Of a stretch of 64,000 nt of DNA, positions 7,525-61,212 are shown in pieces. Made by a program: the position numbers and the translations under genes. Each line of letters begins with the position of its first letter. Within the stretch, counting starts at the first letter, position 1. Below the pieces are notes generated by a model. It saw nothing but the letters and a program-made list of their open reading frames with translations, had not been told where the DNA came from and ran no database searches. This DNA is from a virus (taxonomy: Duplodnaviria; Caudoviricetes): IMG/VR virus record IMGVR_UViG_3300049988_000286, positions 435,573 to 499,572 of that record, one strand, 5' to 3'.

Positions 7525-7557
7525 TGTTGACACCCAAAAGCTCGTGTGAGATAAATA
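7525..7557 (+). promoter_or_regulatory. Promoter of the Tyr/His tRNA cluster (TTGACA plus ATAAATA)
   Basis: TGTTGACACCC-N15-ATAAATA; same architecture at 18108-18140 on the minus strand. Confidence 0.7.
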
Positions 7558-7562
7558 CTCCT

Positions 7563-7607
7563 ATGAACACGCAGAGCCATCACACCTATTATCATTACCA
7601 CGCGTAA
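7563..7607 (+). CDS. His/Tyr-rich leader peptide MNTQSHHTYYHYHA
   Basis: ATG 5 nt after TAAATA; 7 of the last 9 codons are His or Tyr; followed by alternative hairpins and Tyr/His tRNAs. Confidence 0.7.
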   Translation: MNTQSHHTYYHYHA

Positions 7608-7643
7608 GCGGGGTCGTGGTAACGCGTCCTCGTTTCGGGGACG
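7595..7643 (+). promoter_or_regulatory. Attenuator-like alternative hairpins
   Basis: 1:2 TTACCACG(7595-7602)/CGTGGTAA(7615-7622); 2:3 CGGGGTCGTG-GTAA-CGCGTCCTCG (7609-7632); 3:4 CGTCCTCG/CGGGGACG (7625-7643). No U-tract after 3:4. Confidence 0.55.
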
Positions 7644-7728
7644 ATGAAGGTGTGAAAGAGCCAGCGTGGCACTCTCCCCATAGTTGAACCCGCGAAGACG
7701 CAGATGATTTGCGTATCATGTTGCTAGT

Positions 7729-7812
7729 GGGTCGGCTGGACACGAGTGAGTCCACCTGACTGTAAATCAGACGCTTTGGCTGTGAGGGTGCAAATTCCTT
7801 CCCGGCCCACCA
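7729..7812 (+). tRNA. tRNA-Tyr(GTA)
   Basis: Acceptor GGGTCGG/CCGGCCC, A73, encoded CCA, anticodon loop CTGTAAA, long variable arm; T-loop reads TGCAAATT rather than TTCRANT. Confidence 0.85.
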
Positions 7813-7837
7813 AGCAACCAAAGAACAGTGATCAGGT

Positions 7838-7911
7838 GCGGCCGAGGCTGACTTGGATGAGGCGCGCGGTTGTGATCCGCGAGATAGTGAGTTCGAACCT
7901 CACCGGTCGCC
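7838..7911 (+). tRNA. tRNA-His(GTG), copy 1
   Basis: Acceptor GCGGCCG/CGGTCGC, anticodon arm CGCGG-TTGTGAT-CCGCG, T arm GTGAG-TTCGAAC-CTCAC; -1 base is T, C73, CCA not encoded. Confidence 0.85.
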
Positions 7912-7930
7912 CCTGAACACTGTTCACCTT

Positions 7931-8024
7931 GGGAGGTGCCCCCGCTCGCCGGTTGTAACCCGGTGGTCTCTAATAAGGGTGGGAAGCATTGAGGCGATGG
8001 GTGCAATTCCTACACCTCCCACCA
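7931..8024 (+). ncRNA. Atypical D-armless tRNA-like RNA with GTA anticodon
   Basis: 8-bp acceptor GGGAGGTG/CACCTCCC plus ACCA, 4-bp T stem, arm GCCGG-TTGTAAC-CCGGT, 9-nt linker instead of a D arm, ~33-nt variable region. Confidence 0.65.
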
Positions 8025-8027
8025 CGT

Positions 8028-8102
8028 GGCGTTGGTAGCTCAATGGTAGAGCGCTCGATTGTGGATCGAGATACGCGGGTTCGATCCCCGTCCTTCGCCC
8101 CA
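8028..8102 (+). tRNA. tRNA-His(GTG), copy 2
   Basis: G-1:C73, D arm TAGCTCAATGGTAGAGC, anticodon arm CTCGA-TTGTGGA-TCGAG, GGTTCGATCC T arm, CCA; two U-U mismatches in the acceptor stem. Confidence 0.88.
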
Positions 8103-8130
8103 GACCTTCTAACAAGTCCCTAAATATGTC

Positions 8131-14940: not shown

Positions 14941-16310
14941 TAAAGAGATATAGGATGATCTTCAAAACCTTCAAGTACCCAAGCGGTTCTACTATTAACA
15001 TAAGGGTCTACACCAGTGATGACTTGCTGTGACATCCTCATCTTCTTCGGGAGATCAGTATAGATACTGACCGGTGGGCGTGCGTGATACAGTTCCTTCT
15101 TCATCTCGTAGGTGGGCATGAAGAAACGCTGTGTTCCACGCGCGCGCATCTTGCGAATGAAGTCGAGCAGCATGGCTTCGCTCAACCCTTTCAGCTTCTG
15201 ATTGACCTCCGGCTCCATGATCTTCGGCAGATCGGTTTGCACCTCATCGATCCAGCAATCGCGTCCGAAGAGCGTGAAACGCACCCAGCCCAGAGCAACG
15301 ACGGTATAACGTTCATCGCCTCCACCAAGCGACAGACCAGCCTTTGGTGGTTTGGGTGCGGCGGGTGGCTTGGGGTGGTTGCTCGCATAGTGGTAATTGA
15401 CCAGCGCTTTGCAATCGGGGATCGAGAGATCAAGGCCGTCTTTGATTGCTTCCACCGGGAGACCGAAGACACAGGCGATGTTCTTACGATCAAGGAAGAT
15501 ACGCTGATCGTCCTGACCATCCATCTTCCATTCGACGATGTAGTTGCGCGCCGATTTAACCACTCGCTCGATCGTCGTGGTCTCACTCGGGTTAGCTCGC
15601 AGATCATCGATTGAGATGTCTCGACCCCCGAGTTGTTTCACCAACGCGGAGAAGAATGGAGTGTTGCCCCAGCGCTGCTGCTTCAATTCCTTGACCGAGA
15701 TGCTCTCGCGATCGTTGGTTTCGAACCAGCGCATCAGGGCGAGTTGATCTTGGTTCAAGCCCGCGAGCGATTTGCGTTCGCCCTGACGAGGAAGGCGGTG
15801 CCCGCGTGAGAACTCGCGGCGACGGTCCTCGTTCTGCTTATCGAACAGCGTTTGAAGAGTGGTGTCGAAGTTGGAGAGTTGGCGCAAAACATGGATGTTG
15901 CCGGGAAACTCCTCAAACGCCTCACGCTGCAACTCGACGGGGATACGATCGAACATCTCACACGTCTGACGAATATTACGCTTCATCGCGATTGCGACAA
16001 CATCGAACGGGATCGGGCGCTTGACCTTGTACAGGACAGTCGGTCCGAATTTTTCAACTGCGAGTCGGAGACAAGTATCGCTAGGCTCCGGCAGGTATTC
16101 CAAAGCGGAAGCCCAGTTCTCACACGCGTATTCCTGTGCTTCCTCGTGGGGGTTCTTGATCGCTCGGATCAGCGCCACATTGCGACCGAGAGCAATCATC
16201 TGCACTTGCCTCGACGGCGCTTCCATATGACGAATATTGAAGGGATCGGCGTAAATGAGCGCGAGTTGCTCCGCCGTTGATTCTGACTGCTCGAAGATGG
16301 TTGAACGCAT
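14940..16310 (-). CDS. Multi-domain protein with capsid-targeting-like N-terminus
   Basis: MRSTIFEQ start 4 nt after TAAATA; N-terminal helical repeats; C-terminal WVRF...WIDEVQTD motif. Confidence 0.55.
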   Translation of the reverse strand: MRSTIFEQSESTAEQLALIYADPFNIRHMEAPSRQVQMIALGRNVALIRAIKNPHEEAQEYACENWASALEYLPEPSDTCLRLAVEKFGPTVLYKVKRPIPFDVVAIAMKRNIRQTCEMFDRIPVELQREAFEEFPGNIHVLRQLSNFDTTLQTLFDKQNEDRRREFSRGHRLPRQGERKSLAGLNQDQLALMRWFETNDRESISVKELKQQRWGNTPFFSALVKQLGGRDISIDDLRANPSETTTIERVVKSARNYIVEWKMDGQDDQRIFLDRKNIACVFGLPVEAIKDGLDLSIPDCKALVNYHYASNHPKPPAAPKPPKAGLSLGGGDERYTVVALGWVRFTLFGRDCWIDEVQTDLPKIMEPEVNQKLKGLSEAMLLDFIRKMRARGTQRFFMPTYEMKKELYHARPPVSIYTDLPKKMRMSQQVITGVDPYVNSRTAWVLEGFEDHPISL

Positions 16311-16313
16311 CCC

Positions 16314-17587
16314 CTATTTAGGGGCGGGCTCGAAATGCAGCTTGCGGCCACGCCGCGACAGGTAGCCGACTACCTTACCGGGAAGACGGGAATCCGAGTA
16401 GGAGTCGCAGTTGGGACCGAATTCGAAAACCGCAGAGGGCGCGGCCTCTGTGATATCACGGAAGTCACCCGCAATCGCGTAGCAGACATTGGGAAGGGCC
16501 AAGCGAGCATTCTCGGCGTGATGATGCATCAGCGCTACCCGGCGGCGATAGACTCCGCTCTCGTTCCAGAACGAGTTCTTATACGCGTAGGCGAAACGAC
16601 CAATGGTGCGGCCAGCGACGACTTTGGTCTGCGACCGCAAGGTGTAGGTGTAGACGCCCATCATTGTTCTCCTTGACGCACCTCCTACCCTCAATAGTTC
16701 GGTGCGTCAAGGATAATTGTTTATTCCCAGCCCGCCTTGCGGAGGAATTTGTTGATCGCAGCGTCGTCGGCGTACTCCCAGCTATCCACCGAGGTTACGA
16801 AGCTGTCGTGCTGGAAACCCTTATGGTTTATCAGGCAGGCGTCACCATCATTGTCCACCTCGATGACCAACCCCACCTTGTCTCCTGTTTCGATGAGGGT
16901 ACCGACGCGGATTTCACCCTCGCCTCCGGGAATGCTGTCGGCATCGAGGACGAGCGCCATCAGGGCCTTCACCGCTCCGGTCTGGCAGCCGAAGTCAGCC
17001 TCACCGATGATCCGCGCGGCCTCCGCTACCTTCGGGGGCAGGGTCTCACCCGCGATCCCGTCACGGGCACTGCGGGTCCGATCCCGAATCTTCTCCGGAT
17101 CGATCAGGTCGCGTAACTTCATCACTTTCCTCCATCTCTCGCTCGATAACGATTTTGTCGTGCTGACGCTGACGGCGAGCGTGCTCACGCTTCGCCTCGC
17201 CGCGCTGCGCCGACGAGTACATCTCGTCGGTTTGTGCGGTATCTACCTGTTTGTCAGGTCGGAAGTAGTTGCTTGGGCTTCCCATGCCGCGAGGGGTAAC
17301 GCGACGCGGTGGGGGCGTCAATCGGATCGAGTCAGATCGAAGATGGAGACCTTCGGGGCAGCGCGATCCTCTTCCACCATTTGGGTATGATGGGTCGGCT
17401 CGCCGAACAGTTTCTGGTTCAGCTTCTCGAAATTCTCGACACTGGCCTTGGCGCGCTTGAAGGCAGGATCATCGCTGCAACCCCGCATCGCATCCATGAA
17501 CGACGAACGGTCCGCCACCGCATAGGAGAGCGCGGAGCGGATGATGTTGAGATCATTGGCGGTGATGGTGGGCTTACGATGCGCCAT
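16314..17587 (-). other. Hypothetical genes (16314-16664, 16721-17122, 17318-17587)
   Basis: Co-oriented ORFs with SD-like elements; no recognised domains. Confidence 0.5.
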
Positions 17588-17803
17588 GGATCATTCCACC
17601 CATGTAGAGTATAAGTGCCCCGCCGATTATATTGGCAAGACCGATTAGTTCTCGTCGAGAAGCCCGCGTCTCCGCTGGGTTGGTGGAAAGATACCATCCC
17701 GAAAACAGGATGACTGCCGCACACAGACTAATCACTAATGACATGTCTTCTTCCCTTCACTCTTGGTGTAGGGGATAGTTCGATGACAGTCAAGATAAAT
17801 GAA

Positions 17804-17888
17804 TGGTCCCCCGGACGAGAATCGAACTCGCTGATGCTTTCGCAAACAGGCGTGAGAAACCTGCGTCCTGCCATTAGACTTCCGGGGG
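17804..17888 (-). tRNA. tRNA-Glu(CTC) with long variable arm
   Basis: Acceptor CCCCCGG/CCGGGGG, A73, CCA; anticodon arm CAGGT-TTCTCAC-GCCTG; variable arm containing TGC-GAAA-GCA; T arm GCGAG-TTCGATT-CTCGT. Confidence 0.85.
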
Positions 17889-17889
17889 A

Positions 17890-17973
17890 TGGCCGCGCTG
17901 ACGGGAATCGAACCCGCTTCTGCTTTCGCAACAGGAGTGAAAGTCCTGCGTCCGCCCATTAGACTTCAGCGCG
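17890..17973 (-). tRNA. tRNA-Glu(TTC) with long variable arm
   Basis: Acceptor CGCGCTG/CAGCGCG, G73, CCA; anticodon arm CAGGA-CTTTCAC-TCCTG; variable arm TGC-GAAA-GCA; T arm GCGGG-TTCGATT-CCCGT. Confidence 0.85.
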
Positions 17974-18005
17974 ATAGGCTGGTCTGGATGGATCATTAAC
18001 GGGGG

Positions 18006-18069
18006 AGAAACAGAACCAAAATCACCCGCGCCGTCGAGGCGCGTGAAAGCGCACTCAACCGATCGAGCG
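18006..18069 (-). terminator. Attenuator: protector 1:2, antiterminator 2:3, terminator 3:4 plus U-tract
   Basis: 1:2 CGCTCGA-TCGG-TTGAGTG (18069-18052); 2:3 GAGTGCGC-TTTCAC-GCGCCTC (18056-18036); 3:4 CGCGCC-TCGAC-GGCGCG (18043-18027) then GGTGA-TTTTGGTTCTGTTTCT. Confidence 0.75.
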
Positions 18070-18102
18070 TTCGCGTTCCATGAGGGTGTAGGTCGTGTTC
18101 AT
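18055..18102 (-). CDS. Leader peptide MNTTYTLMERERSIG (GAA-CGC-GAA-CGC)
   Basis: ATG 5 nt after TAAATA; same ATGAACACG start as the His/Tyr leader; the 3' end overlaps attenuator helix 1:2. Confidence 0.65.
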   Translation of the reverse strand: MNTTYTLMERERSIG

Positions 18103-18107
18103 GTTTT

Positions 18108-18140
18108 TATTTATGCCTGAACGGCATCCGGGCGTCAACA
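18108..18140 (-). promoter_or_regulatory. Promoter of the tRNA-Glu cluster
   Basis: TGTTGACGCCC-N15-ATAAATA, identical spacing to 7525-7557. Confidence 0.7.
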
Positions 18141-18182
18141 TCTTTTTTGACCTTCGTGCAATCACGCTGCTACCCTCACGTG

Positions 18183-18479
18183 ATGACGCGTTCGAAACTC
18201 GCAGCCCGTTCACGCGATGACTGGCGCTGCCACACCCTGTCGGTCGAATCGCTGTTCGATGTCCCTAAAGTTAAATGGCTCGTCCGGTTCAACTCCGCCT
18301 TCGACAGCGATCAACCCCAGACGTGGCTCGTTGATTCCGTCGCATACGAGAAAGGAGAGGAAGTGGCGGCTTGGCTCATCGATAGTTGCGACGGAGACTT
18401 CGCCATATTGCGTTATCGCGGCCACGTCATATTCGAGCGAGAGGATGATGCTCGCCTCTGCTACCTGACCTTTGCTTAG
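18183..18479 (+). CDS. Hypothetical protein (F-x-x-x-x-D-A C-terminal motif family)
   Basis: Ends VIFEREDDARLCYLTFA. Confidence 0.5.
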   Translation: MTRSKLAARSRDDWRCHTLSVESLFDVPKVKWLVRFNSAFDSDQPQTWLVDSVAYEKGEEVAAWLIDSCDGDFAILRYRGHVIFEREDDARLCYLTFA

Positions 18480-18787
18480 ATTGCGTACTGGTTCGCGGCG
18501 GCGACGAGTTCATCGTGCTCCGCTTCTGCGGCTTTGTCCGACCACGGCTTGTAGGTGCCGCTCCCATAGCTGCTGTGGATGCGGGGGAAGGGCTGTCCCG
18601 AACGCAGCGCCTGACCGGCTTGCCAGAGCATCACTGCATCCGGGCCAGTGAAACGCTCATCAACCGAGTCCCACTTGGGGTCGTAGTCGGGGCGGATTCC
18701 AGCATGGCGCTCGATGAAGGAATCGATACGATCGGCGAGATCGGGGTCGGTATGTGCTTCGGTGATCATGTCGATATAGTCGCGCAT
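18476..18787 (-). CDS. Small protein with capsid-targeting-like N-terminus
   Basis: MRDYIDMITEA start 5 nt after TAAATA. Confidence 0.6.
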   Translation of the reverse strand: MRDYIDMITEAHTDPDLADRIDSFIERHAGIRPDYDPKWDSVDERFTGPDAVMLWQAGQALRSGQPFPRIHSSYGSGTYKPWSDKAAEAEHDELVAAANQYAI

Positions 18788-18841
18788 ATGATTATTTAGC
18801 GCAAGGCTTGACACCTTACCGAACTATGCTAACTGACCGGC

Positions 18842-19314
18842 ATGAAGATCAACATCATTCGCCTCATCCGTCGTATCGATCCCACCGAGGGTCTGTTCAT
18901 GAACCGGTGGACGGCCAGTGATGCACGACTGATCGACCTCATGGTCAAGCTGGGTCTCGTCCAGTGGATGAGTGACAGTACAAACTATAATCCCCGATGG
19001 CCGCGCGCAAGACAGCATGGGATGCGCCTCACACTCACGCATCGCGGCACTCTCCTGCATCGCCGGTATGCGCGATGATCAAGATTCTTCCCAACACCCT
19101 CATCGGCAAGACGCGCTACAAGGCTCGGCTGCGCCTGTATGACGCGCCCGCGCTACGCGGTCTCTTCGGCGACCCTTACTACCAGCGGCGGCTTGAACTC
19201 CGCGAGATGGTGCTCGATCTGGTCAAGCATCCGATCCGCGACGAAGGCTCCACCATCTATTTCACGAACAAACAGGATGCCCGCCTCGTGGAGACGATGC
19301 TCTTACTGTCCTAG
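18842..19314 (+). other. Two hypothetical genes (18842-19078, 19075-19314)
   Basis: ATGA overlap; TTGACA promoter-like element at 18808. Confidence 0.5.
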
Positions 19315-20649
19315 ACCGTACATCTGTGCGAAACGCTGTCCTAGTCCGTACATCTGCGCGAAACGCTGCGCATTCGCCGTCCCGGCCTCGCTGAACATAG
19401 GCTCGCCGTTCGAGCCCATCTCGGCGAAGAGGTTGTTGCACAACTCGCGCGCCACCGGCACGCCCGCCGCTGCGATCATCAACCGAACCAGCATCGCGAT
19501 CTCCGCACTGTAATCGAGCCTTACTGGCGTGTCGTAGATGTCGGCGAGGAGACGATCGTCGCTCATCGAGTTCATGATCAATCGACGAATGTCATGAGCG
19601 ACTTGTCGCTTGCCCACTTCGTCCCACTTCATCTTTGGCAGCATCGCTTCGATCACGCCCGCATAGCGGGGCAGCCTCTGATTATCTGGAACGACGAGGC
19701 GAACCAATTTATGTTCACCGCCGTTGTTCGATATTTCGATTTGGACATACATGCTGGCGCGATCTCCGGCGAGACGCTCGATGAGCCATGACATCCTACC
19801 GGGCTTGATGTAACGCCCGTATTGCTTCGCTGCTTTAATGAGATCGCGTGGTTGATTGATCTCTATATCAAGAACGTCGGTGCGCGGATTGTTCAGACGA
19901 TCGACGACGCGAATCACGCGCGTCGAGAAGAACACCGCCTGAATGGGCTCATTGCTGTGGATGATCCCCATACCCTCGTCCACCACGGCGGTGACTCCGA
20001 TACGGAGCAGAAGGTTGGTCCACACCGCCGCTGCACCAGACTCGTGGTTGGCCATGTGGCAGATGTTCAACACATCGGCGGGACCGAAGCCTTTGGCGTC
20101 ACCCTCCCGGCGAAGATGCACGATGATGTGGGCGACTAGGCGGGAGAACGCCCACCAGATGCCCGCAGGGCTCTTCTGATAGGCATTCTCTGCCGCGTAG
20201 GTGAAGACCTTGCTCCAAATGAGTTCCTTCACCCGTTCGCGCGGCAGCGGCTTGTTGTCGCCATCAAGGAGCGGGAAGCGATCAAGGAGGAAATCCCCCA
20301 CGGCCTCGTTCAGCTTCTGGAACCTCGCTACCGAGTCGCCGCGCAGGAACACCGCTCCAATCTCGTTGACGAGTTTTATGACGGAAATATAGGGGGCCTG
20401 TCCCGCGAACGGCACGGTATCACCCTCGATCTGTTCTTCCATCAACCCAATCGGATAGGCGTAGATGCCGATCGGCGTATCAAAGGTCGAGCGAGGGTTG
20501 ACCCCGATCTTGTCCAGCTTGGTGAAGCTGGCGAACCACCATCCCGGCTTCTTCGCGTACGTGAGGAGTTCCTCGATCGAGGCGCTGTTACGCGCGTGGG
20601 TATTGAGGTCGGGGTTGCGTCGTGCTTCGACGAGATTGTGGTAGCGCAT
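19303..20649 (-). CDS. Putative ADP-ribosyltransferase-fold protein with capsid-targeting-like N-terminus (paralog of 24240-25409)
   Basis: MRYHNLVEARRNP 4 nt after TAAATA; TPIGIYAYP and GIIHSNEPIQAVF blocks shared with the paralog. The ART assignment is inference. Confidence 0.5.
   Translation of the reverse strand: MRYHNLVEARRNPDLNTHARNSASIEELLTYAKKPGWWFASFTKLDKIGVNPRSTFDTPIGIYAYPIGLMEEQIEGDTVPFAGQAPYISVIKLVNEIGAVFLRGDSVARFQKLNEAVGDFLLDRFPLLDGDNKPLPRERVKELIWSKVFTYAAENAYQKSPAGIWWAFSRLVAHIIVHLRREGDAKGFGPADVLNICHMANHESGAAAVWTNLLLRIGVTAVVDEGMGIIHSNEPIQAVFFSTRVIRVVDRLNNPRTDVLDIEINQPRDLIKAAKQYGRYIKPGRMSWLIERLAGDRASMYVQIEISNNGGEHKLVRLVVPDNQRLPRYAGVIEAMLPKMKWDEVGKRQVAHDIRRLIMNSMSDDRLLADIYDTPVRLDYSAEIAMLVRLMIAAAGVPVARELCNNLFAEMGSNGEPMFSEAGTANAQRFAQMYGLGQRFAQMYGLGQ
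19306..19368. repeat. 30-bp imperfect tandem duplication
   Basis: CTGTCCTAGACCGTACATCTGTGCGAAACG / CTGTCCTAGTCCGTACATCTGCGCGAAACG; encodes QRFAQMYGLG twice. Confidence 0.9.
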
Positions 20650-20652
20650 CGG

Positions 20653-21675
20653 TTATTTAGAGCGCCGTGGTTTGCCCGTGTAGCGATCGTAATCGACCTG
20701 ATCGATCGCCTCATTACCGGCTTTGGTGATCTTCGCTCTTGCATATTGCTGATCATCCGGGATGCAATAGAGACCGTCGTCTTTGCCACGGTTGACTACT
20801 CGGCACCAACGACGGACGAAGGTTTCGAACCTGTCCTCCTTCGTTCCGTAGAGTTCATGTGGGAGCAAGATGAAGTCACCGTTCTCGTTCTCGTACCGCA
20901 CGATGTTGAGGCGGGCTACCGGCTTCTCGATGTTGGTATCGGAATCGCGGATCAGGTAGGCGATCAGCGACTGTCCTTGCGCGTAGCGGGCGACATACCG
21001 CCGTTCCTTACCGTCCGTGAGGCTTGTGCAGCTTGTCCATCCCCGACCGGTGCTCATACCCGCTATGTCATAGGGATGACGCGAGATCACCACCGTGTAG
21101 GGCTCGGTTTTCTTAGTGAGGTCGCGGGTAGGATCGGTCTCGTAGGCGCGTTTCACCACGAGGAATTGATCCAGCATCTGGGTCATCGTGTGCACGGGGT
21201 CGGCGAGAAAGCTGTCGATCTCTGCCGCATCCCTGACATACCGGCGATACTGCGCCTCGATGCGGTTCAGGACTTTACCGATCCGGACTTCGCGATCGAG
21301 AACAGTGACGACGCCGCGCCTGTATTGCGCGCGCATCTCCGCGATGCGCTCTTCTCTATCTTCACCAAAGAGAACGAGTGTGCACTCCTCGTTCCAACAA
21401 AGGGGCTTGATGTCGTCGAAGCCGATGTCGTGGAAGACGCCTTTATTGTTCGGAGAGAATTGGCGAATCTGCTCGTAGACGCGCTCCATGACATCGAAGT
21501 GAACGTCCCCGAGCGCGTTCTCGCGGATGATCGGGAAGTAAAGGCGATCCGGGCTCTTGCGCACGAACTTCTTGTTAGCGGCGAAGAGATCGTCGTAGGG
21601 GCGCGGCCCCGCCGCCTTCATGATCGGGCGGGCGAGGCTCAACGGAACGGCTTCGAATAGGTCGCGGATCAGCAT
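20653..21675 (-). CDS. Hypothetical protein with capsid-targeting-like N-terminus
   Basis: MLIRDLFEA 4 nt after TAAATA; SRHPYDIAGMSTGRGWTSC motif. Confidence 0.6.
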   Translation of the reverse strand: MLIRDLFEAVPLSLARPIMKAAGPRPYDDLFAANKKFVRKSPDRLYFPIIRENALGDVHFDVMERVYEQIRQFSPNNKGVFHDIGFDDIKPLCWNEECTLVLFGEDREERIAEMRAQYRRGVVTVLDREVRIGKVLNRIEAQYRRYVRDAAEIDSFLADPVHTMTQMLDQFLVVKRAYETDPTRDLTKKTEPYTVVISRHPYDIAGMSTGRGWTSCTSLTDGKERRYVARYAQGQSLIAYLIRDSDTNIEKPVARLNIVRYENENGDFILLPHELYGTKEDRFETFVRRWCRVVNRGKDDGLYCIPDDQQYARAKITKAGNEAIDQVDYDRYTGKPRRSK

Positions 21676-59270: not shown

Positions 59271-59640
59271 TCAACGGCGACATTGGTGTTTGATGCCGTC
59301 GATGCTTCGTAACTCCCACGCACCTCCTGCTTTGTTACCCCAGCGCAGGTTACGCTCGCCGCACATCCGGCACACAACGATTGTCGGTACGCGCTTGGTC
59401 TTCGGCTGGCGTTGCAGACCTTGGATGAAATAGCGGAGTGCTGAATCAGAAGCGTCACCCATCGATGATCTCCAAGAAGAATTGATAAACGATCGTCACT
59501 TCTTCGGTGACGATCTTGTCTCTCGTCACCGACACGAGGCGATAATCCTCGGGGAGGTTCTCGTTCATCCACAAATCGATCGGTGTTTCGTCGCCGACTT
59601 GGTTGATGACGAGATATCGGGGTTGGTCTCGATCACACAT
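59271..59640 (-). other. Two small hypothetical genes (59271-59462 Zn-ribbon, 59455-59640)
   Basis: CRMC...HQC in the first; overlapping ORFs. Confidence 0.45.
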
Positions 59641-59676
59641 GAGGTATATGACCTCATCCCGCCCCGGTGTGCAATA

Positions 59677-61212
59677 TTACTCTCCGGTGCCGAGTCCGAG
59701 GCGAACGTCGTCCATGAAATCTACATATTCATCGACGTAGTTGCTGTTCTGATAGTCGGGGTTGAAGATAGCGAACGGCGTCAATCGGCCGACAAAGTTT
59801 GAATAGGATTCATTACCGTTGGGAGAACGAGGGTCGAGATTGGTCACGCCGTTGACGAGCATTACATTGTCGGTGATGTTCTTCACATACAAGGCATTGC
59901 CCGCTATCCAAGCGCGGATTAACTTGCCCATGATCGGGATTGCGGGGGTGAAACTATCTACCAGCGTAGTGTTACCACGATAGTCGCCAGCTACGACGGA
60001 CACCTGTCCGTTGTAGAAACCGACATCGAGACCGTATGATTCGGGGCTATTGATTTGGGGAGCCATTCGTATCGCACATGCGCGCCACAGGAATCGCGCT
60101 TCGAAGAAATAGTTTCGCGGGATACGGGTGTTCCAGAAACCATAGTTCAAGCCCGCTTTGAACGGACCTTGTTGATCGGTATAGCCACCTCCAACGTAAT
60201 TACCCTCGTTGTCGTACTCGGGTTCAACATATTGATACTTTCGGCGACCACGGAGCACGTTATTGATTCTGGTGGATGAACCATCGGTCCAAAGAAAGCC
60301 ATCGTTCACAACACGGTTGAAGTTGTCGGCGAATTGAAACGCGGCATTACCGGCGAAAGTTAACCAACCCGGTCGCGTTGCAAGCAGGTAGGCATCGATC
60401 GCTGCGTGCCAGATAGCAATCTCGGCCTCCGTCATGTTCTCCGCGATGTAGAAGAAGGAAAAGCGGCTCTGCGGCTGGGCGGCGGTGTTCCCCGACTTCG
60501 AACCTAGAGCGAGGCGCGACGATGCCTGACGATTATAAGTCGTCGTATCTGCCAGAATGCCGTTGTAATAGCGCGCAGCGTAGTTGTTTCCAAGCTGGAA
60601 GGTGTAATGCCGTGGTTTGTCATAGTAGGGCATCCGACCGAAGATGTAGTTTTCGTCCATGTAAACGCCATCGGAGTAGTAGCTCGATTCGCGTGTCTGA
60701 ACACCAATGTACCAGTTGCGACCGGCCAATGAGCAGATGAGTGGTTTATACGACCCTATGGTGCTAGTCGATGATGCATCCTCGACCATACCGACCGTGA
60801 TACGAGTAAAGTCATACGCGGCGGTGTTCGTGGTAGTTTGACTGATCTTCGAGAAGAGATCGGGAAGGGAGACATTGGCCTCGCTGGTGTTAAGCCGCCA
60901 GCCCAGACCCGGTTGATGGGTGGCGTTGCTGGGAACGAGGGTGCTGAACGTCCCCAAGGGATTCACGCTGTTCTTCAATGACGATTCTTCAGTCGGGCCA
61001 TTAAGGAACCACACGCCTTTCAGCTTATCGACAAAACCGGCCGTGCGCGCAGTCTTGAGCAAGTTCAACACCGGGGCGAACTGCGCATCTGTCAGTTTCG
61101 AGGTGAGGCTGTCCTGAAATGCGGTGGCGAGTGGTTCAAAGACGCGACGAAGGTTGAGCCCGGTCAGGGGACGGTCATGCACGCGCGCAGGACCGATGAT
61201 CGAGCGAGCCAT
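59677..61212 (-). CDS. Tail fibre / receptor-binding-like protein
   Basis: 511 aa; last gene of the late tail module; paralog of 22738-24237. Confidence 0.6.
   Translation of the reverse strand: MARSIIGPARVHDRPLTGLNLRRVFEPLATAFQDSLTSKLTDAQFAPVLNLLKTARTAGFVDKLKGVWFLNGPTEESSLKNSVNPLGTFSTLVPSNATHQPGLGWRLNTSEANVSLPDLFSKISQTTTNTAAYDFTRITVGMVEDASSTSTIGSYKPLICSLAGRNWYIGVQTRESSYYSDGVYMDENYIFGRMPYYDKPRHYTFQLGNNYAARYYNGILADTTTYNRQASSRLALGSKSGNTAAQPQSRFSFFYIAENMTEAEIAIWHAAIDAYLLATRPGWLTFAGNAAFQFADNFNRVVNDGFLWTDGSSTRINNVLRGRRKYQYVEPEYDNEGNYVGGGYTDQQGPFKAGLNYGFWNTRIPRNYFFEARFLWRACAIRMAPQINSPESYGLDVGFYNGQVSVVAGDYRGNTTLVDSFTPAIPIMGKLIRAWIAGNALYVKNITDNVMLVNGVTNLDPRSPNGNESYSNFVGRLTPFAIFNPDYQNSNYVDEYVDFMDDVRLGLGTGE

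Follow-up and report, generated by a model that had tools for sequence, protein, structure and literature searches.

A predicted leader-peptide attenuator ahead of two phage tRNA-Glu genes, with codon-matched leaders before other tRNA clusters of the same phage

In the classical leader-peptide attenuators (trpL, hisL, pheL, thrL, leuL and ilvL), a promoter-proximal ORF of about 14–30 codons carries the regulatory codons, of which trpL has only two. To our knowledge, all described leader-peptide attenuators control genes for amino-acid biosynthesis or for aminoacyl-tRNA synthetases. The genes for tRNAs are normally viewed as controlled at their promoters, through growth rate and the stringent response, and by processing, and not through the translation of a short message with matching codons. 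Phage tRNA clusters, such as those of T4, T5 and the jumbo phages, supplement or replace host tRNAs, for example after degradation or anticodon-nuclease cleavage, and we know of accounts of their expression through promoters and processing only. Full-text literature searches returned no published description of codon-matched leader peptides for tRNA genes.

We describe here a locus in a phage with a genome of 499,572 bp (G000), a 64,000-nucleotide stretch of which is called the window; coordinates are window positions, and the locus lies on the minus strand. An initial annotation made from the sequence had proposed that a complete ribosome-mediated attenuator precedes two tRNA-Glu genes, and inspection of the sequence together with tRNA and terminator scans bears out the proposed layout from 18138 to 18006, with a promoter, the MNTTYTLMERERSIG ORF, three overlapping helices and a U-rich tail, followed by the tRNA-Glu pair:

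18133 to 18138, minus strand: -35 hexamer TTGACG of the tRNA-unit promoter, read from the sequence; the box is common to eight stable-RNA units
18109 to 18115, minus strand: -10 region CATAAAT(A), the phage TAAATA box, assigned from genome-wide TAAATA counts
18055 to 18102, minus strand: leader ORF MNTTYTLMERERSIG, 15 codons and a TGA stop (ATG 18102-18100, TGA 18057-18055)
18044 to 18080, minus strand: helix 1:2 (anti-antiterminator), extended form -12.2 kcal/mol; core at 18069-18052, 7 bp
18033 to 18059, minus strand: helix 2:3 (antiterminator), 10 bp with one bulge, -14.1 kcal/mol
18027 to 18043, minus strand: helix 3:4 (terminator hairpin), six G-C pairs and a 5-nt loop, -10.6 kcal/mol
18006 to 18026, minus strand: U-rich tail GGUGAUUUUGGUUCUGUUUCU, the expected 3' end of a terminated RNA
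17890 to 17973, minus strand: tRNA-Glu(UUC), ARAGORN and Rfam (51 bits), CCA encoded, unusual 12-nt variable-arm hairpin
17804 to 17888, minus strand: tRNA-Glu(CUC), ARAGORN and Rfam (47.3 bits), CCA encoded, 13-nt variable-arm hairpin

As in the known attenuators, the short ORF lies between the promoter (18138-18109) and the putatively regulated tRNA genes, the first of which begins at 17973; both tRNAs had been named in advance as the next genes, and ARAGORN and Rfam agree on them. The GAA codons anticipated at positions 9 and 11 are present (18078-18076 and 18072-18070), but the leader has no GAG codon, which the second tRNA (CUC) reads. Two Glu codons among 14 have no significance by themselves (P = 0.22), in line with the annotation's own caution that they are weak evidence, and the whole-region fold is no better than that of shuffled sequences (z = -0.86). 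The Glu element taken alone is thus not beyond chance, and its significance comes through comparison with paralogues and orthologues and through the switch model, all described below.

The promoter has a 17-nt spacer between TTGACG (18138-18133) and CATAAAT (18115-18109), and was not called by a promoter scan because its -10 element ends in A or is read as ATAAAT. The leader ATG lies 5 nt past the TAAATA box with no Shine-Dalgarno sequence. This is the phage's usual leaderless start position, since 103 of the 171 TAAATA boxes in the genome have an ATG 4–5 nt downstream and 91 of those 103 ATGs open ORFs of at least 60 aa, so that 91 phage protein genes start in this manner (TAAATA-N4/5-ATG); control hexamers show no such peak. 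From this sequence context the Glu leader ORF is probably leaderless, with a credible predicted translation start. Its first codons, ATG-AAC-ACG, are common to the leaders of other tRNA clusters, whatever the tRNAs that follow.

Helix 1:2 has codons 8–14 as its 5' arm, and its 3' arm overlaps the stop codon; the claim that helix 1 begins at the codon after the second GAA is correct. Helix 2:3 also exists as proposed, although it is longer than the 18056-18036 first assigned to it and extends over 18059-18033. It shares segments with both 1:2 and 3:4 and is mutually exclusive with each, such that its formation excludes the terminator, while 1:2 overlaps the end of the leader, an arrangement characteristic of attenuators; it is also predicted to be stronger than 3:4 (-14.1 versus -10.6 kcal/mol). 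The predicted 3:4 hairpin and its tail, which separate the leader from the tRNA genes, have the form of an intrinsic terminator, and the hairpin is the sole terminator-like site that the scan tool finds in 17000-19000. The tail has 11 U in 16 nt counted from the first U, but the tract is imperfect, with interruptions and with GGUGA intervening between it and the stem, and it is poorer still in the ortholog. We considered that the hairpin might be the terminator of the upstream gene and rejected this, because the promoter lies downstream of that gene and ahead of the hairpin, an order that the ortholog retains. A T-box or other riboswitch was likewise rejected, as a search of 15000-21000 with all Rfam families (E ≤1) returned only the two tRNAs.

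The behavior of the leader was modelled by masking a ribosome footprint along it and computing the probability of the terminator, P(terminator), with footprint edges varied from +9 to +15. In the phage sequence P(terminator) is 0.97 for the free RNA and 0.98 with a ribosome at the stop, falls to 0.00 with a ribosome at E9 and 0.03 at E11, and is at least 0.96 from R12 onwards; the corresponding values for the ortholog (L124) are 0.92, 0.96, 0.00, 0.01 and, from R12, 0.92. In both sequences the free fold consists of 1:2 plus 3:4, and a ribosome at E9 gives helix 2:3 as the predicted structure. None of 400 dinucleotide shuffles of either sequence reproduces this stall-specific pattern. The register of the Glu codons relative to the helices is robust in silico for E9, which is sensitive at every edge from +9 to +15, and borderline for E11, which sits at the margin of the modelled window and in G000 is no longer sensitive at edges of +13 or more. 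R12 is inside the sensitive window only at the shortest tested edge in G000, and at +9 to +11 in L124.

The ortholog, from a metagenome, encodes the leader MNTIFTLLERERLS followed by tRNA-Glu(UUC), and its GAA-CGC-GAA-CGC is identical to that of G000, with the reading frame and the position of the stop relative to 1:2 retained. The initial annotation had suggested alignment of orthologous loci as a check, and both the GAA codons and the 1:2/2:3/3:4 architecture are indeed kept while the helix sequences differ. All nine pairs of helix 1:2 are conserved, with two compensatory and three one-sided changes, although a comparison of two full sequences (G000 and L124) carries no statistical power; RNAalifold recovers helix 1:2 independently. 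The helices of the ortholog have predicted energies of -15.1 (1:2), -19.4 (2:3, 11 bp) and -8.7 kcal/mol (3:4). Other relatives have leaders containing DEREED (G001), ELDEREDD (L105) and ADEREED (L126) in front of Asp+Glu+Glu clusters with canonical terminators, and among the relatives Asp codons occur in the leader only where a tRNA-Asp is included downstream. Three others (L006, L107 and L128) have leaders of the Ile/Trp/Thr/Ser type, and in L099 the leader MNTISTTAAGTGT precedes three Gly, two Ala and one Thr tRNA.

The Glu unit is one of a set within the same genome. A TTGAC-N-TAAAT promoter occurs at ten sites, eight of them before stable-RNA genes, and about two would be expected by chance, which is the number of others found. 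In all eight stable-RNA units the -35 box TGTTGAC(A/G) stands at a constant distance from the TAAATA box, and seven of them, the Glu unit included, have a short ORF that mirrors the downstream tRNAs. The eighth, tmRNA, has the same promoter without a leader ORF and serves as an internal control. This tmRNA is of the two-piece type, a hint of an alphaproteobacterial host, and the habitat of the phage is leaf or phyllosphere. The other units are as follows:

7527 to 8102, plus strand: Tyr/His unit, in the same window, with promoter TTGACA-17-GATAAATA and leader MNTQSHHTYYHYHA at 7563-7607
7729 to 7809, 7838 to 7913 and 8029 to 8102, plus strand: tRNA-Tyr(GUA), tRNA-His and tRNA-His of the Tyr/His unit
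Lys unit: leader MSTMTLSTRKRKRL, then three tRNA-Lys
Gln unit: leader TNSHALLPFEAQRQQR with a GTG start, then two tRNA-Gln
Leu/Pro unit: a 47-aa ORF containing LPLLPLLPLPLL, then three Pro and five Leu tRNAs
Ile/Trp/Thr/Ser unit: leader MNTTTSSTTISWSITFG, then two Ile, a Trp-like tRNA, two Thr and three Ser
Gly/Arg/Val/Asn/Ala unit: leader MNTNTTFVAGRGVVANRANRG, then Met, Gly, Val, Gly, Arg, Arg, Val, Asn, Ala, Asn and Ala

The tRNA-Tyr(GUA) at 7729-7809 scores 29.2 bits with Rfam and is found by ARAGORN at a lower threshold. Per-unit binomial probabilities for the match between leader and tRNAs range from 1e-7 to 0.2, and in the MNTNTTFVAGRGVVANRANRG leader all 14 of codons 8 to 21 are read by downstream anticodons. 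In a permutation test that took in eight units of this genome, the true pairing of leaders and clusters is the unique best of 40,320 (p = 2.5e-5). The modelled stall window of the Tyr/His unit runs from H7 to H11 and includes Y9 and Y10. Applied to the cluster-A unit, the Lys unit and the three Asp/Glu units, the simple masking model with three helices yields no switch, and the Gln unit, with a hairpin that has no U-tract, shows the opposite behavior. No convincing leader precedes the two Cys tRNAs, Arg(CCU) or the two tRNAs with CUA anticodons. We also note a five-codon ORF, MHQLI, with ATA as its last codon, before tRNA-Ile(UAU), which is too short for judgement.

A looser pattern gave 81 matches in IMG/VR, mostly unrelated, of which only L099, L004 and L006 are real. 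The promoter-leader pattern had four chance matches in 185,579 species genomes, none of them before tRNAs, and no cellular counterpart with the same start module was found in that set. Scanning with ACCCTC-N3-GAACGCGAACGC gave a single match, inside a coding region, that we dismiss as chance, and ATGAACACG-N15-27-GAACGCGARGA recovered G001 again along with two chance matches. In one contig of a metatranscriptome library from the phyllosphere, 24 of the 25 leader nt at 18088-18064 are conserved and are joined through 98 unlike nt to the 5' part of a tRNA-Glu; the contig may derive from contaminating DNA, and contigs cannot reveal RNA ends. At the level of the locus, BLASTN of 17000-19500 against 50,697 GenBank phage records gave no match, Pfam assigned no family to eight neighboring ORFs, and no relatives of the 448-aa neighbor protein were found. 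A scan of IMG/VR and metagenome contigs with the odd tRNA-Glu sequence had no match, and a search for a phage GluRS, which might have explained the long-armed tRNA-Glu, found none.

Taken together, the anatomy of the sequence, its paralogues and ortholog, and the thermodynamic model make it likely that the Glu element is a ribosome-mediated (leader-peptide) transcription attenuator gating the two phage tRNA-Glu genes; from these we infer leader translation, termination and the response to tRNA supply. Transcription would be directed by a dual promoter, with a sigma-70-like -35 and the phage TAAATA box, and would start at or adjoining the ATG so that ribosomes would translate the 15-codon leader from a leaderless mRNA. 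When GAA is decoded fast, the ribosome would reach the stop, and either helix 1:2 or the ribosome itself would occupy segment 2; hairpin 3:4 and the U-rich tail would then form and transcription would end before the tRNA genes. Slow decoding of GAA, which might reflect scarce charged tRNA-Glu, loss or cleavage of host tRNA or heavy phage demand, would stall the ribosome at codon 9 or 11 with segment 1 covered, helix 2:3 would pair, and RNA polymerase, with the terminator blocked, would enter tRNA-Glu(UUC) and tRNA-Glu(CUC). The new tRNA-Glu would restore decoding and turn the unit off again, constituting negative feedback. That a stall on GAA masks segment 1, frees 2:3 and permits read-through was the reading first offered for this locus, and the masking model, the paralogues, the start context and the ortholog all lend it support.

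There are several alternatives to consider. The most plausible, which we nonetheless think unlikely, retains the leader as a sensor of decoding but replaces intrinsic termination at 3:4 with a different output, such as Rho-dependent termination, pausing, termination by a phage polymerase, or an effect on the folding, processing or stability of the tRNA precursor. Several observations favor such an output. The ortholog L124, like the His and Gln units, has a weak U-tract or none; in the Gln unit the tRNA acceptor strand is a possible pairing partner for the hairpin's 3' arm; the TAAATA box used by these units probably serves a non-host or modified polymerase; and the simple terminator model fails for several units. 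However, the Glu unit does have a G-C hairpin with a U-rich tail, and the competition between 1:2, 2:3 and 3:4 is conserved in the ortholog; textbook terminators stand between leader and tRNAs in the Leu/Pro unit and in several relatives, and hairpin-plus-U-tract terminators do exist elsewhere in this genome, because a canonical one ends the gene upstream of cluster A.

A leader that senses something besides Glu-tRNA is a distinctly poorer candidate. It could respond to Arg-tRNA through the alternating CGC codons, as the initial annotation cautioned, or to overall translation capacity through slowing anywhere in codons 7–11, and it is true that every one of the five Glu-type leaders retains Glu-Arg-Glu (GAA CGC GAR), that in the Lys and Gln leaders, too, cognate and Arg codons alternate, and that modelled stalls at L7, M8 or R10 also weaken the terminator. 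CGC is unlikely to be a hungry codon, however, because the phage ORFs use it more than any other Arg codon (46%), whereas GAA is the minor Glu codon (36%). The Arg tRNAs have a leader of their own with three Arg codons, R12 falls outside the sensitive window when the footprint edge is at its default or larger, and CGC nucleotides 29–31 pair with 52–54 in helix 1:2, which offers a structural reason for their retention. We judge that CGC is probably structural and unlikely to be sensed. Least probable of all, in our view very improbable, is that the short ORF is no sensor, with ATG-AAC-ACG simply a conserved initial transcribed sequence, the GAA pair coincidental, and the hairpins constitutive and acting as a partial terminator, a processing site or a 5' stabilizer. 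The unremarkable Glu codon count and fold z-score would fit this, as would the conservation of the first three codons regardless of the downstream genes and the presence of the same promoter without an ORF at tmRNA. Against it, leader composition tracks the downstream tRNAs in seven paralogous units, with the true pairing the best of all permutations, and does so in relatives too, where Asp codons accompany tRNA-Asp; the ortholog preserves the frame, GAA-CGC-GAA-CGC and the place of the stop although its helix sequences have changed; and the stall-specific switch is absent from all the shuffles. We thus favor the leader-peptide attenuator for the Glu unit.

If the attenuator reading extends to the other units, each tRNA set is probably made only when ribosomes read its codons slowly. 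We propose more tentatively, with the balance tilting slightly against it, a genome-wide and modular 'tRNA on demand' network of at least seven operons, each switched by its own codons, which would be a translational class of tRNA-gene regulation so far undescribed in any organism. The network would cover about 17 amino acids, and its cassette would consist of a promoter with a host-type -35 and the phage TAAATA box, a leaderless start at Met-Asn-Thr and a stop that can be switched, with the codons rewritten for each operon. Such a network could answer host tRNA depletion or anticodon-nuclease defenses, and would provide a direct mechanistic link between phage tRNAs and the host defenses that deplete tRNAs. 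Phages would, if this is true, measure for each codon how well the cell can decode it and supplement just the tRNAs in short supply, and this would account for the ability of very large phages to maintain 40 or more tRNA genes while avoiding wasteful expression. The 45-year-old paradigm of leader-peptide attenuation would gain a new class of target as well as leaderless messages; a short ORF before a phage tRNA cluster would predict the content of the cluster, a useful rule for annotation; and the leaders would constitute compact, programmable sensors for the supply of single tRNAs.

The resemblance to the trp-type attenuators is close in form and logic. Both have three overlapping helices of which 3:4 is an intrinsic terminator, a stall masks segment 1 and favors the antiterminator, and a ribosome at the stop, or none, favors termination, a logic reproduced in silico for the Glu unit. 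As modelled, the Glu element works like the leader-peptide attenuators, although it belongs to no described family, since it has tRNA-Glu genes downstream where the described members control biosynthetic or synthetase genes. It would thereby feed back on its sensor directly through decoding and not through amino-acid supply. Unlike the trp-type attenuators, the phage leader is apparently leaderless, with no Shine-Dalgarno sequence and its ATG 5 nt after the promoter box, and the system is phage-borne and modular, with the same promoter and start and swapped codons for at least seven tRNA clusters, several of which appear to be multivalent 'checklists' of four to six amino acids. E. coli pheST, with its pheM leader peptide, is similar in that a component of the translation apparatus is controlled in response to the supply of one charged tRNA, but its target is a synthetase mRNA and it is a chromosomal, single and Shine-Dalgarno-led unit. 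T-box riboswitches (RF00230) also use a promoter-proximal terminator and antiterminator to read one tRNA by codon and anticodon, but they bind uncharged tRNA through a specifier loop and the T-box sequence without translation, whereas the proposed sensor of the Glu unit is an ORF. With the clusters of T4, T5 and jumbo phages the locus shares the grouping of phage-encoded tRNAs, to which the predicted leaders would add control by the very codons those tRNAs read.

The Glu unit lies on the minus strand, and its parts (listed below) are where the initial annotation had placed them, with all coordinates correct by sequence, tRNA calls, terminator scan and fold. The attenuator-like layout that it described is confirmed: promoter, GAA-containing leader, helices, tail and tRNA-Glu genes are all found.

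Components of the Glu unit (window coordinates)
18138-18133, minus strand: -35 element TTGACG, then a 17-nt spacer and CATAAATA starting at 18115
18102 (ATG) to 18057-18055 (TGA stop), minus strand: leader ORF MNTTYTLMERERSIG, with GAA as codons 9 and 11
18043-18027, minus strand: G-C hairpin, called by the terminator scan
3' of the hairpin, ending at 18006, minus strand: tail GGUGAUUUUGGUUCUGUUUCU
17973-17890, minus strand: tRNA-Glu(UUC), ARAGORN and Rfam, starting about 30 nt past the tail
17888-17804, minus strand: tRNA-Glu(CUC), ARAGORN and Rfam

Helices 1:2 (the anti-antiterminator) and 3:4 (the terminator hairpin) are both present in the minimum-energy fold, and helix 2:3 (the antiterminator) is predicted to emerge once segment 1 is masked. 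Taken on its own, the Glu element is weak evidence. The fold z-score of the region is -0.86, two Glu residues in 14 codons has P = 0.22, and the terminator U-tract is interrupted, with a poorer tail still in L124, the related sequence carrying the ortholog. The promoter scan called no promoter in the unit.

The decisive observation comes from the paralogues, and the Glu unit is one module of a phage-wide system. The window is the final 64 kb of a 499,572-bp IMG/VR record (G+C 57%); besides a tmRNA, the record has over 45 tRNA genes, grouped in some 12 clusters, and the phage DNA is present in leaf and phyllosphere metagenomes. A self-search showed that the promoter and first leader codons of the Glu unit recur ahead of two further tRNA clusters, and paralogues were surveyed by reading upstream of every tRNA cluster together with a genome-wide pattern search. 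The pattern TTGAC-N-TAAAT has 10 sites in 1 Mb (both strands) against about 2 expected by chance; stable-RNA genes lie behind eight of the ten, and at seven of these eight the promoter is followed by a short ORF that mirrors the tRNA payload, the tRNA genes downstream of the leader.

Leaders and their tRNA payloads
MNTTYTLMERERSIG: Glu x2 (unit under study)
MNTQSHHTYYHYHA: Tyr, His, His (window 7527-8102, plus strand; second codon-matched unit within the window)
MSTMTLSTRKRKRL: Lys x3
TNSHALLPFEAQRQQR (GTG start): Gln x2
47-aa ORF with a Shine-Dalgarno sequence, containing LPLLPLLPLPLL: Pro x3, Leu x5
MNTTTSSTTISWSITFG: Ile x2, Trp-like tRNA, Thr x2, Ser x3
MNTNTTFVAGRGVVANRANRG: Met, Gly, Val, Gly, Arg x2, Val, Asn, Ala, Asn, Ala

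The tRNA-Tyr(GUA) of the His/Tyr unit (7729-7809) scores 29.2 bits with Rfam and is missed by ARAGORN at default settings. In the Gly/Arg/Val/Asn/Ala unit the downstream anticodons read all 14 codons at positions 8-21. Unit by unit, the leader-payload match has binomial P values from 1e-7 to 0.2; when eight leaders (those of the seven promoter-matched units plus a 5-codon ORF before tRNA-Ile(UAU), outside the promoter pattern) are permuted over their eight clusters, the true pairing is the unique best among 40,320. The eighth stable-RNA promoter site has the tmRNA behind it and no ORF, and is a useful internal control, having the common promoter with neither amino-acid identity nor leader. This tmRNA is of the two-piece (permuted) type (genome 15527-15913, plus strand), directly behind a TTGACA...TATAAAT promoter; the arrangement is kept in the relative phage G001 (91133-91530, minus strand), with tags VNDNDIRMAIAA and VNDNVAMEVRLAA.

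Relatives were sought by pattern scans of IMG/VR and metagenome contigs, filtered for a short ORF followed by tRNAs; a search of 185,579 cellular species genomes turned up no such leader-tRNA unit.

Related units
L124: leader MNTIFTLLERERLS, then tRNA-Glu(UUC); ortholog of the Glu unit
G001/L004, L105/L119 and L126: leaders with DEREED, ELDEREDD and ADEREED, canonical terminators, then Asp+Glu+Glu clusters
L006 and L107: Ile/Trp/Thr/Ser-type leaders, then Ile, Ser, Trp and Thr tRNAs
L128: Ile/Trp/Thr/Ser-type leader, with no tRNA within the 499 nt available
L099: leader MNTISTTAAGTGT, then Gly x3, Ala x2, Thr

Asp codons are confined to leaders with a tRNA-Asp payload (in L124 the contig stops within the second tRNA). 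In a relative from sequencing run X2, the flanks 17500-17744 and 18218-18499 are present at about 92% identity and 17745-18217, spanning promoter, leader and tRNA-Glu, is replaced by unlike sequence, so the module as a whole acts like a cassette that can be inserted. In a phyllosphere RNA library, one contig keeps 18088-18064 (24 of 25 nt identical), spanning GAA-CGC-GAA-CGC, and joins these leader codons to the 5' part of the tRNA-Glu through 98 nt unlike the 90 here. This fits co-transcription and a conserved sensor beside a fast-evolving switch; DNA carry-over may alternatively be the source of the contig.

An alignment of G000, the phage under study, with L124 shows near-identity in the promoter and in codons 1-12 but not in the helices, the same three being formed by different sequences.

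Helices (positions in G000; A of ATG is nt 1; window coordinate is 18103 minus nt number)
nt 23-59 (core 34-51): helix 1:2, -12.2 kcal/mol in G000, -15.1 in L124
nt 44-70: helix 2:3, -14.1 kcal/mol in G000, -19.4 in L124
nt 60-76: helix 3:4, -10.6 kcal/mol in G000, -8.7 in L124

In helix 1:2 all nine pairs are kept, with two compensatory and three one-sided changes; shifted registers give no pairing, and RNAalifold independently recovers the helix.

Stalling was modelled by keeping the bases under the ribosome (A-site -15 to +12) unpaired and reading out the probability of the terminator hairpin. For G000 and L124 respectively, this probability is 0.97 and 0.92 in free RNA, 0.98 and 0.96 with the ribosome at the stop codon, 0.00 and 0.00 for a stall at E9, 0.03 and 0.01 at E11, and 0.96 and 0.92 at R12. 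Elsewhere in G000 the model gives 0.03 at M8 and 0.28 at R10, with values of 0.91 or more before codon 7; in L124 it gives 0.00-0.01 across T6 to E11. E9 is predicted to be sensitive at every footprint edge from +9 to +15, and E11 to lie at the border of the switch window, sensitivity being lost in G000 for edges of at least +13. When the upstream part of either sequence is dinucleotide-shuffled, the full pattern appears in 0 of 400 shuffles. Comparable switch windows are predicted for L006, L099 and the His/Tyr unit (H7 to H11, including Y9 and Y10); for L099 the modelled default is the antiterminator, and the terminator returns only once a ribosome has reached the stop. The simple model gives no switch in the Lys unit, the cluster-A unit or the three Asp/Glu units; in these last three a longer relay built of duplicated segments seems to operate. 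No U-tract follows the hairpin in the His or the Gln unit. In the Gln unit (genome 68343-68422, minus strand) a 7-bp G-C hairpin lies 6 nt past the leader stop, and its 3' arm could pair alternatively with the acceptor strand of tRNA-Gln; the model has it melted by a terminating ribosome and not a stalled one, and in place of a terminator it may be a switch that acts on folding or processing.

The leader ATG has no Shine-Dalgarno sequence. TAAATA is over-represented in the phage genome: of 171 copies, 103 have an ATG exactly 4 or 5 nt downstream, and 91 of these ATGs open ORFs no shorter than 60 aa; this spacing peak is absent for control hexamers. From these statistics we conclude that it is routine for genes of the phage to begin at the transcription start or right beside it, as leaderless mRNAs, and this is apparently its main promoter/start arrangement, to which the tRNA units add a sigma-70-like -35. 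The leader ATGs occupy exactly that position, which supports their predicted translation. An example within the window lies at 8120 (plus strand), just past the second tRNA-His.

Several of the tRNAs are themselves unusual. Variable-arm hairpins are normally confined to Leu, Ser and Tyr tRNAs, and both tRNA-Glu genes (17804-17973, minus strand) have one of 12-13 nt (UGC-GAAA-GCA). Similar inserts occur in Met, Arg(ACG), Asn (two), Cys, Gln(CUG) and Ile(UAU) tRNAs (genome 25686, 26983, 27717, 28227, 52274, 68172 and 393055), often beside a normal-length isoacceptor; in L124 the orthologous tRNA-Glu has the normal length. A gene of the GluRS/GlnRS family is absent from the phage. Evasion of tRNA-targeting defences and altered identity are both possibilities. 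CUA-anticodon (amber-reading) tRNAs at genome 102238-102314 (plus strand) and 106351-106425 (minus strand), with two more in G001 (59598-59752), hint that TAG may be read through or recoded during part of the infection cycle. The Trp-like tRNA (genome 402970-403045, minus strand) has an 8-nt anticodon loop, CUUCCAAU, for which ARAGORN gives a four-base anticodon, UCCA; at this site a normal tRNA-Trp(CCA) is found in related contigs. We also note a conserved GGG(G/A)(C/T)TCTTTGACATG and G+C-rich stretch about 165 nt past the leader ATG of Ile/Trp/Thr/Ser-type units in three phages (genome ~403370, minus strand; L006 ~10110; L107), with a similar TCTTTGACAT in the cluster-A unit (genome ~25425, plus strand); the element is a candidate for a second -35 box or for an RNA motif.

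The proposal that ribosome stalling at GAA controls read-through into the tRNA-Glu genes gains support from the paralogues, the L124 ortholog and the stall-specific loss of the terminator in the model, and the unit is probably a ribosome-mediated attenuator that would let tRNA-Glu be made when GAA is decoded slowly. Of the Glu codons in the phage, GAA is the less used (36%), and of its Arg codons CGC is the most used (46%). CGC is also paired inside helix 1:2, and together these points argue for a structural and not a sensed role of the conserved Arg codon that separates the Glu codons. Beyond the tRNAs, the region has no match to any Rfam family, including the T-box, and no account of tRNA genes under leader-peptide control came up in full-text searches. 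The logic of the Glu unit is shared with the trpL, hisL, pheL and pheM attenuators. It differs from these in its tRNA-gene target, apparently leaderless start and phage context, features that, like modular leaders, belong to no attenuator family described to our knowledge, and the phage leaders differ further in being modular and often multivalent, each a 'checklist'.
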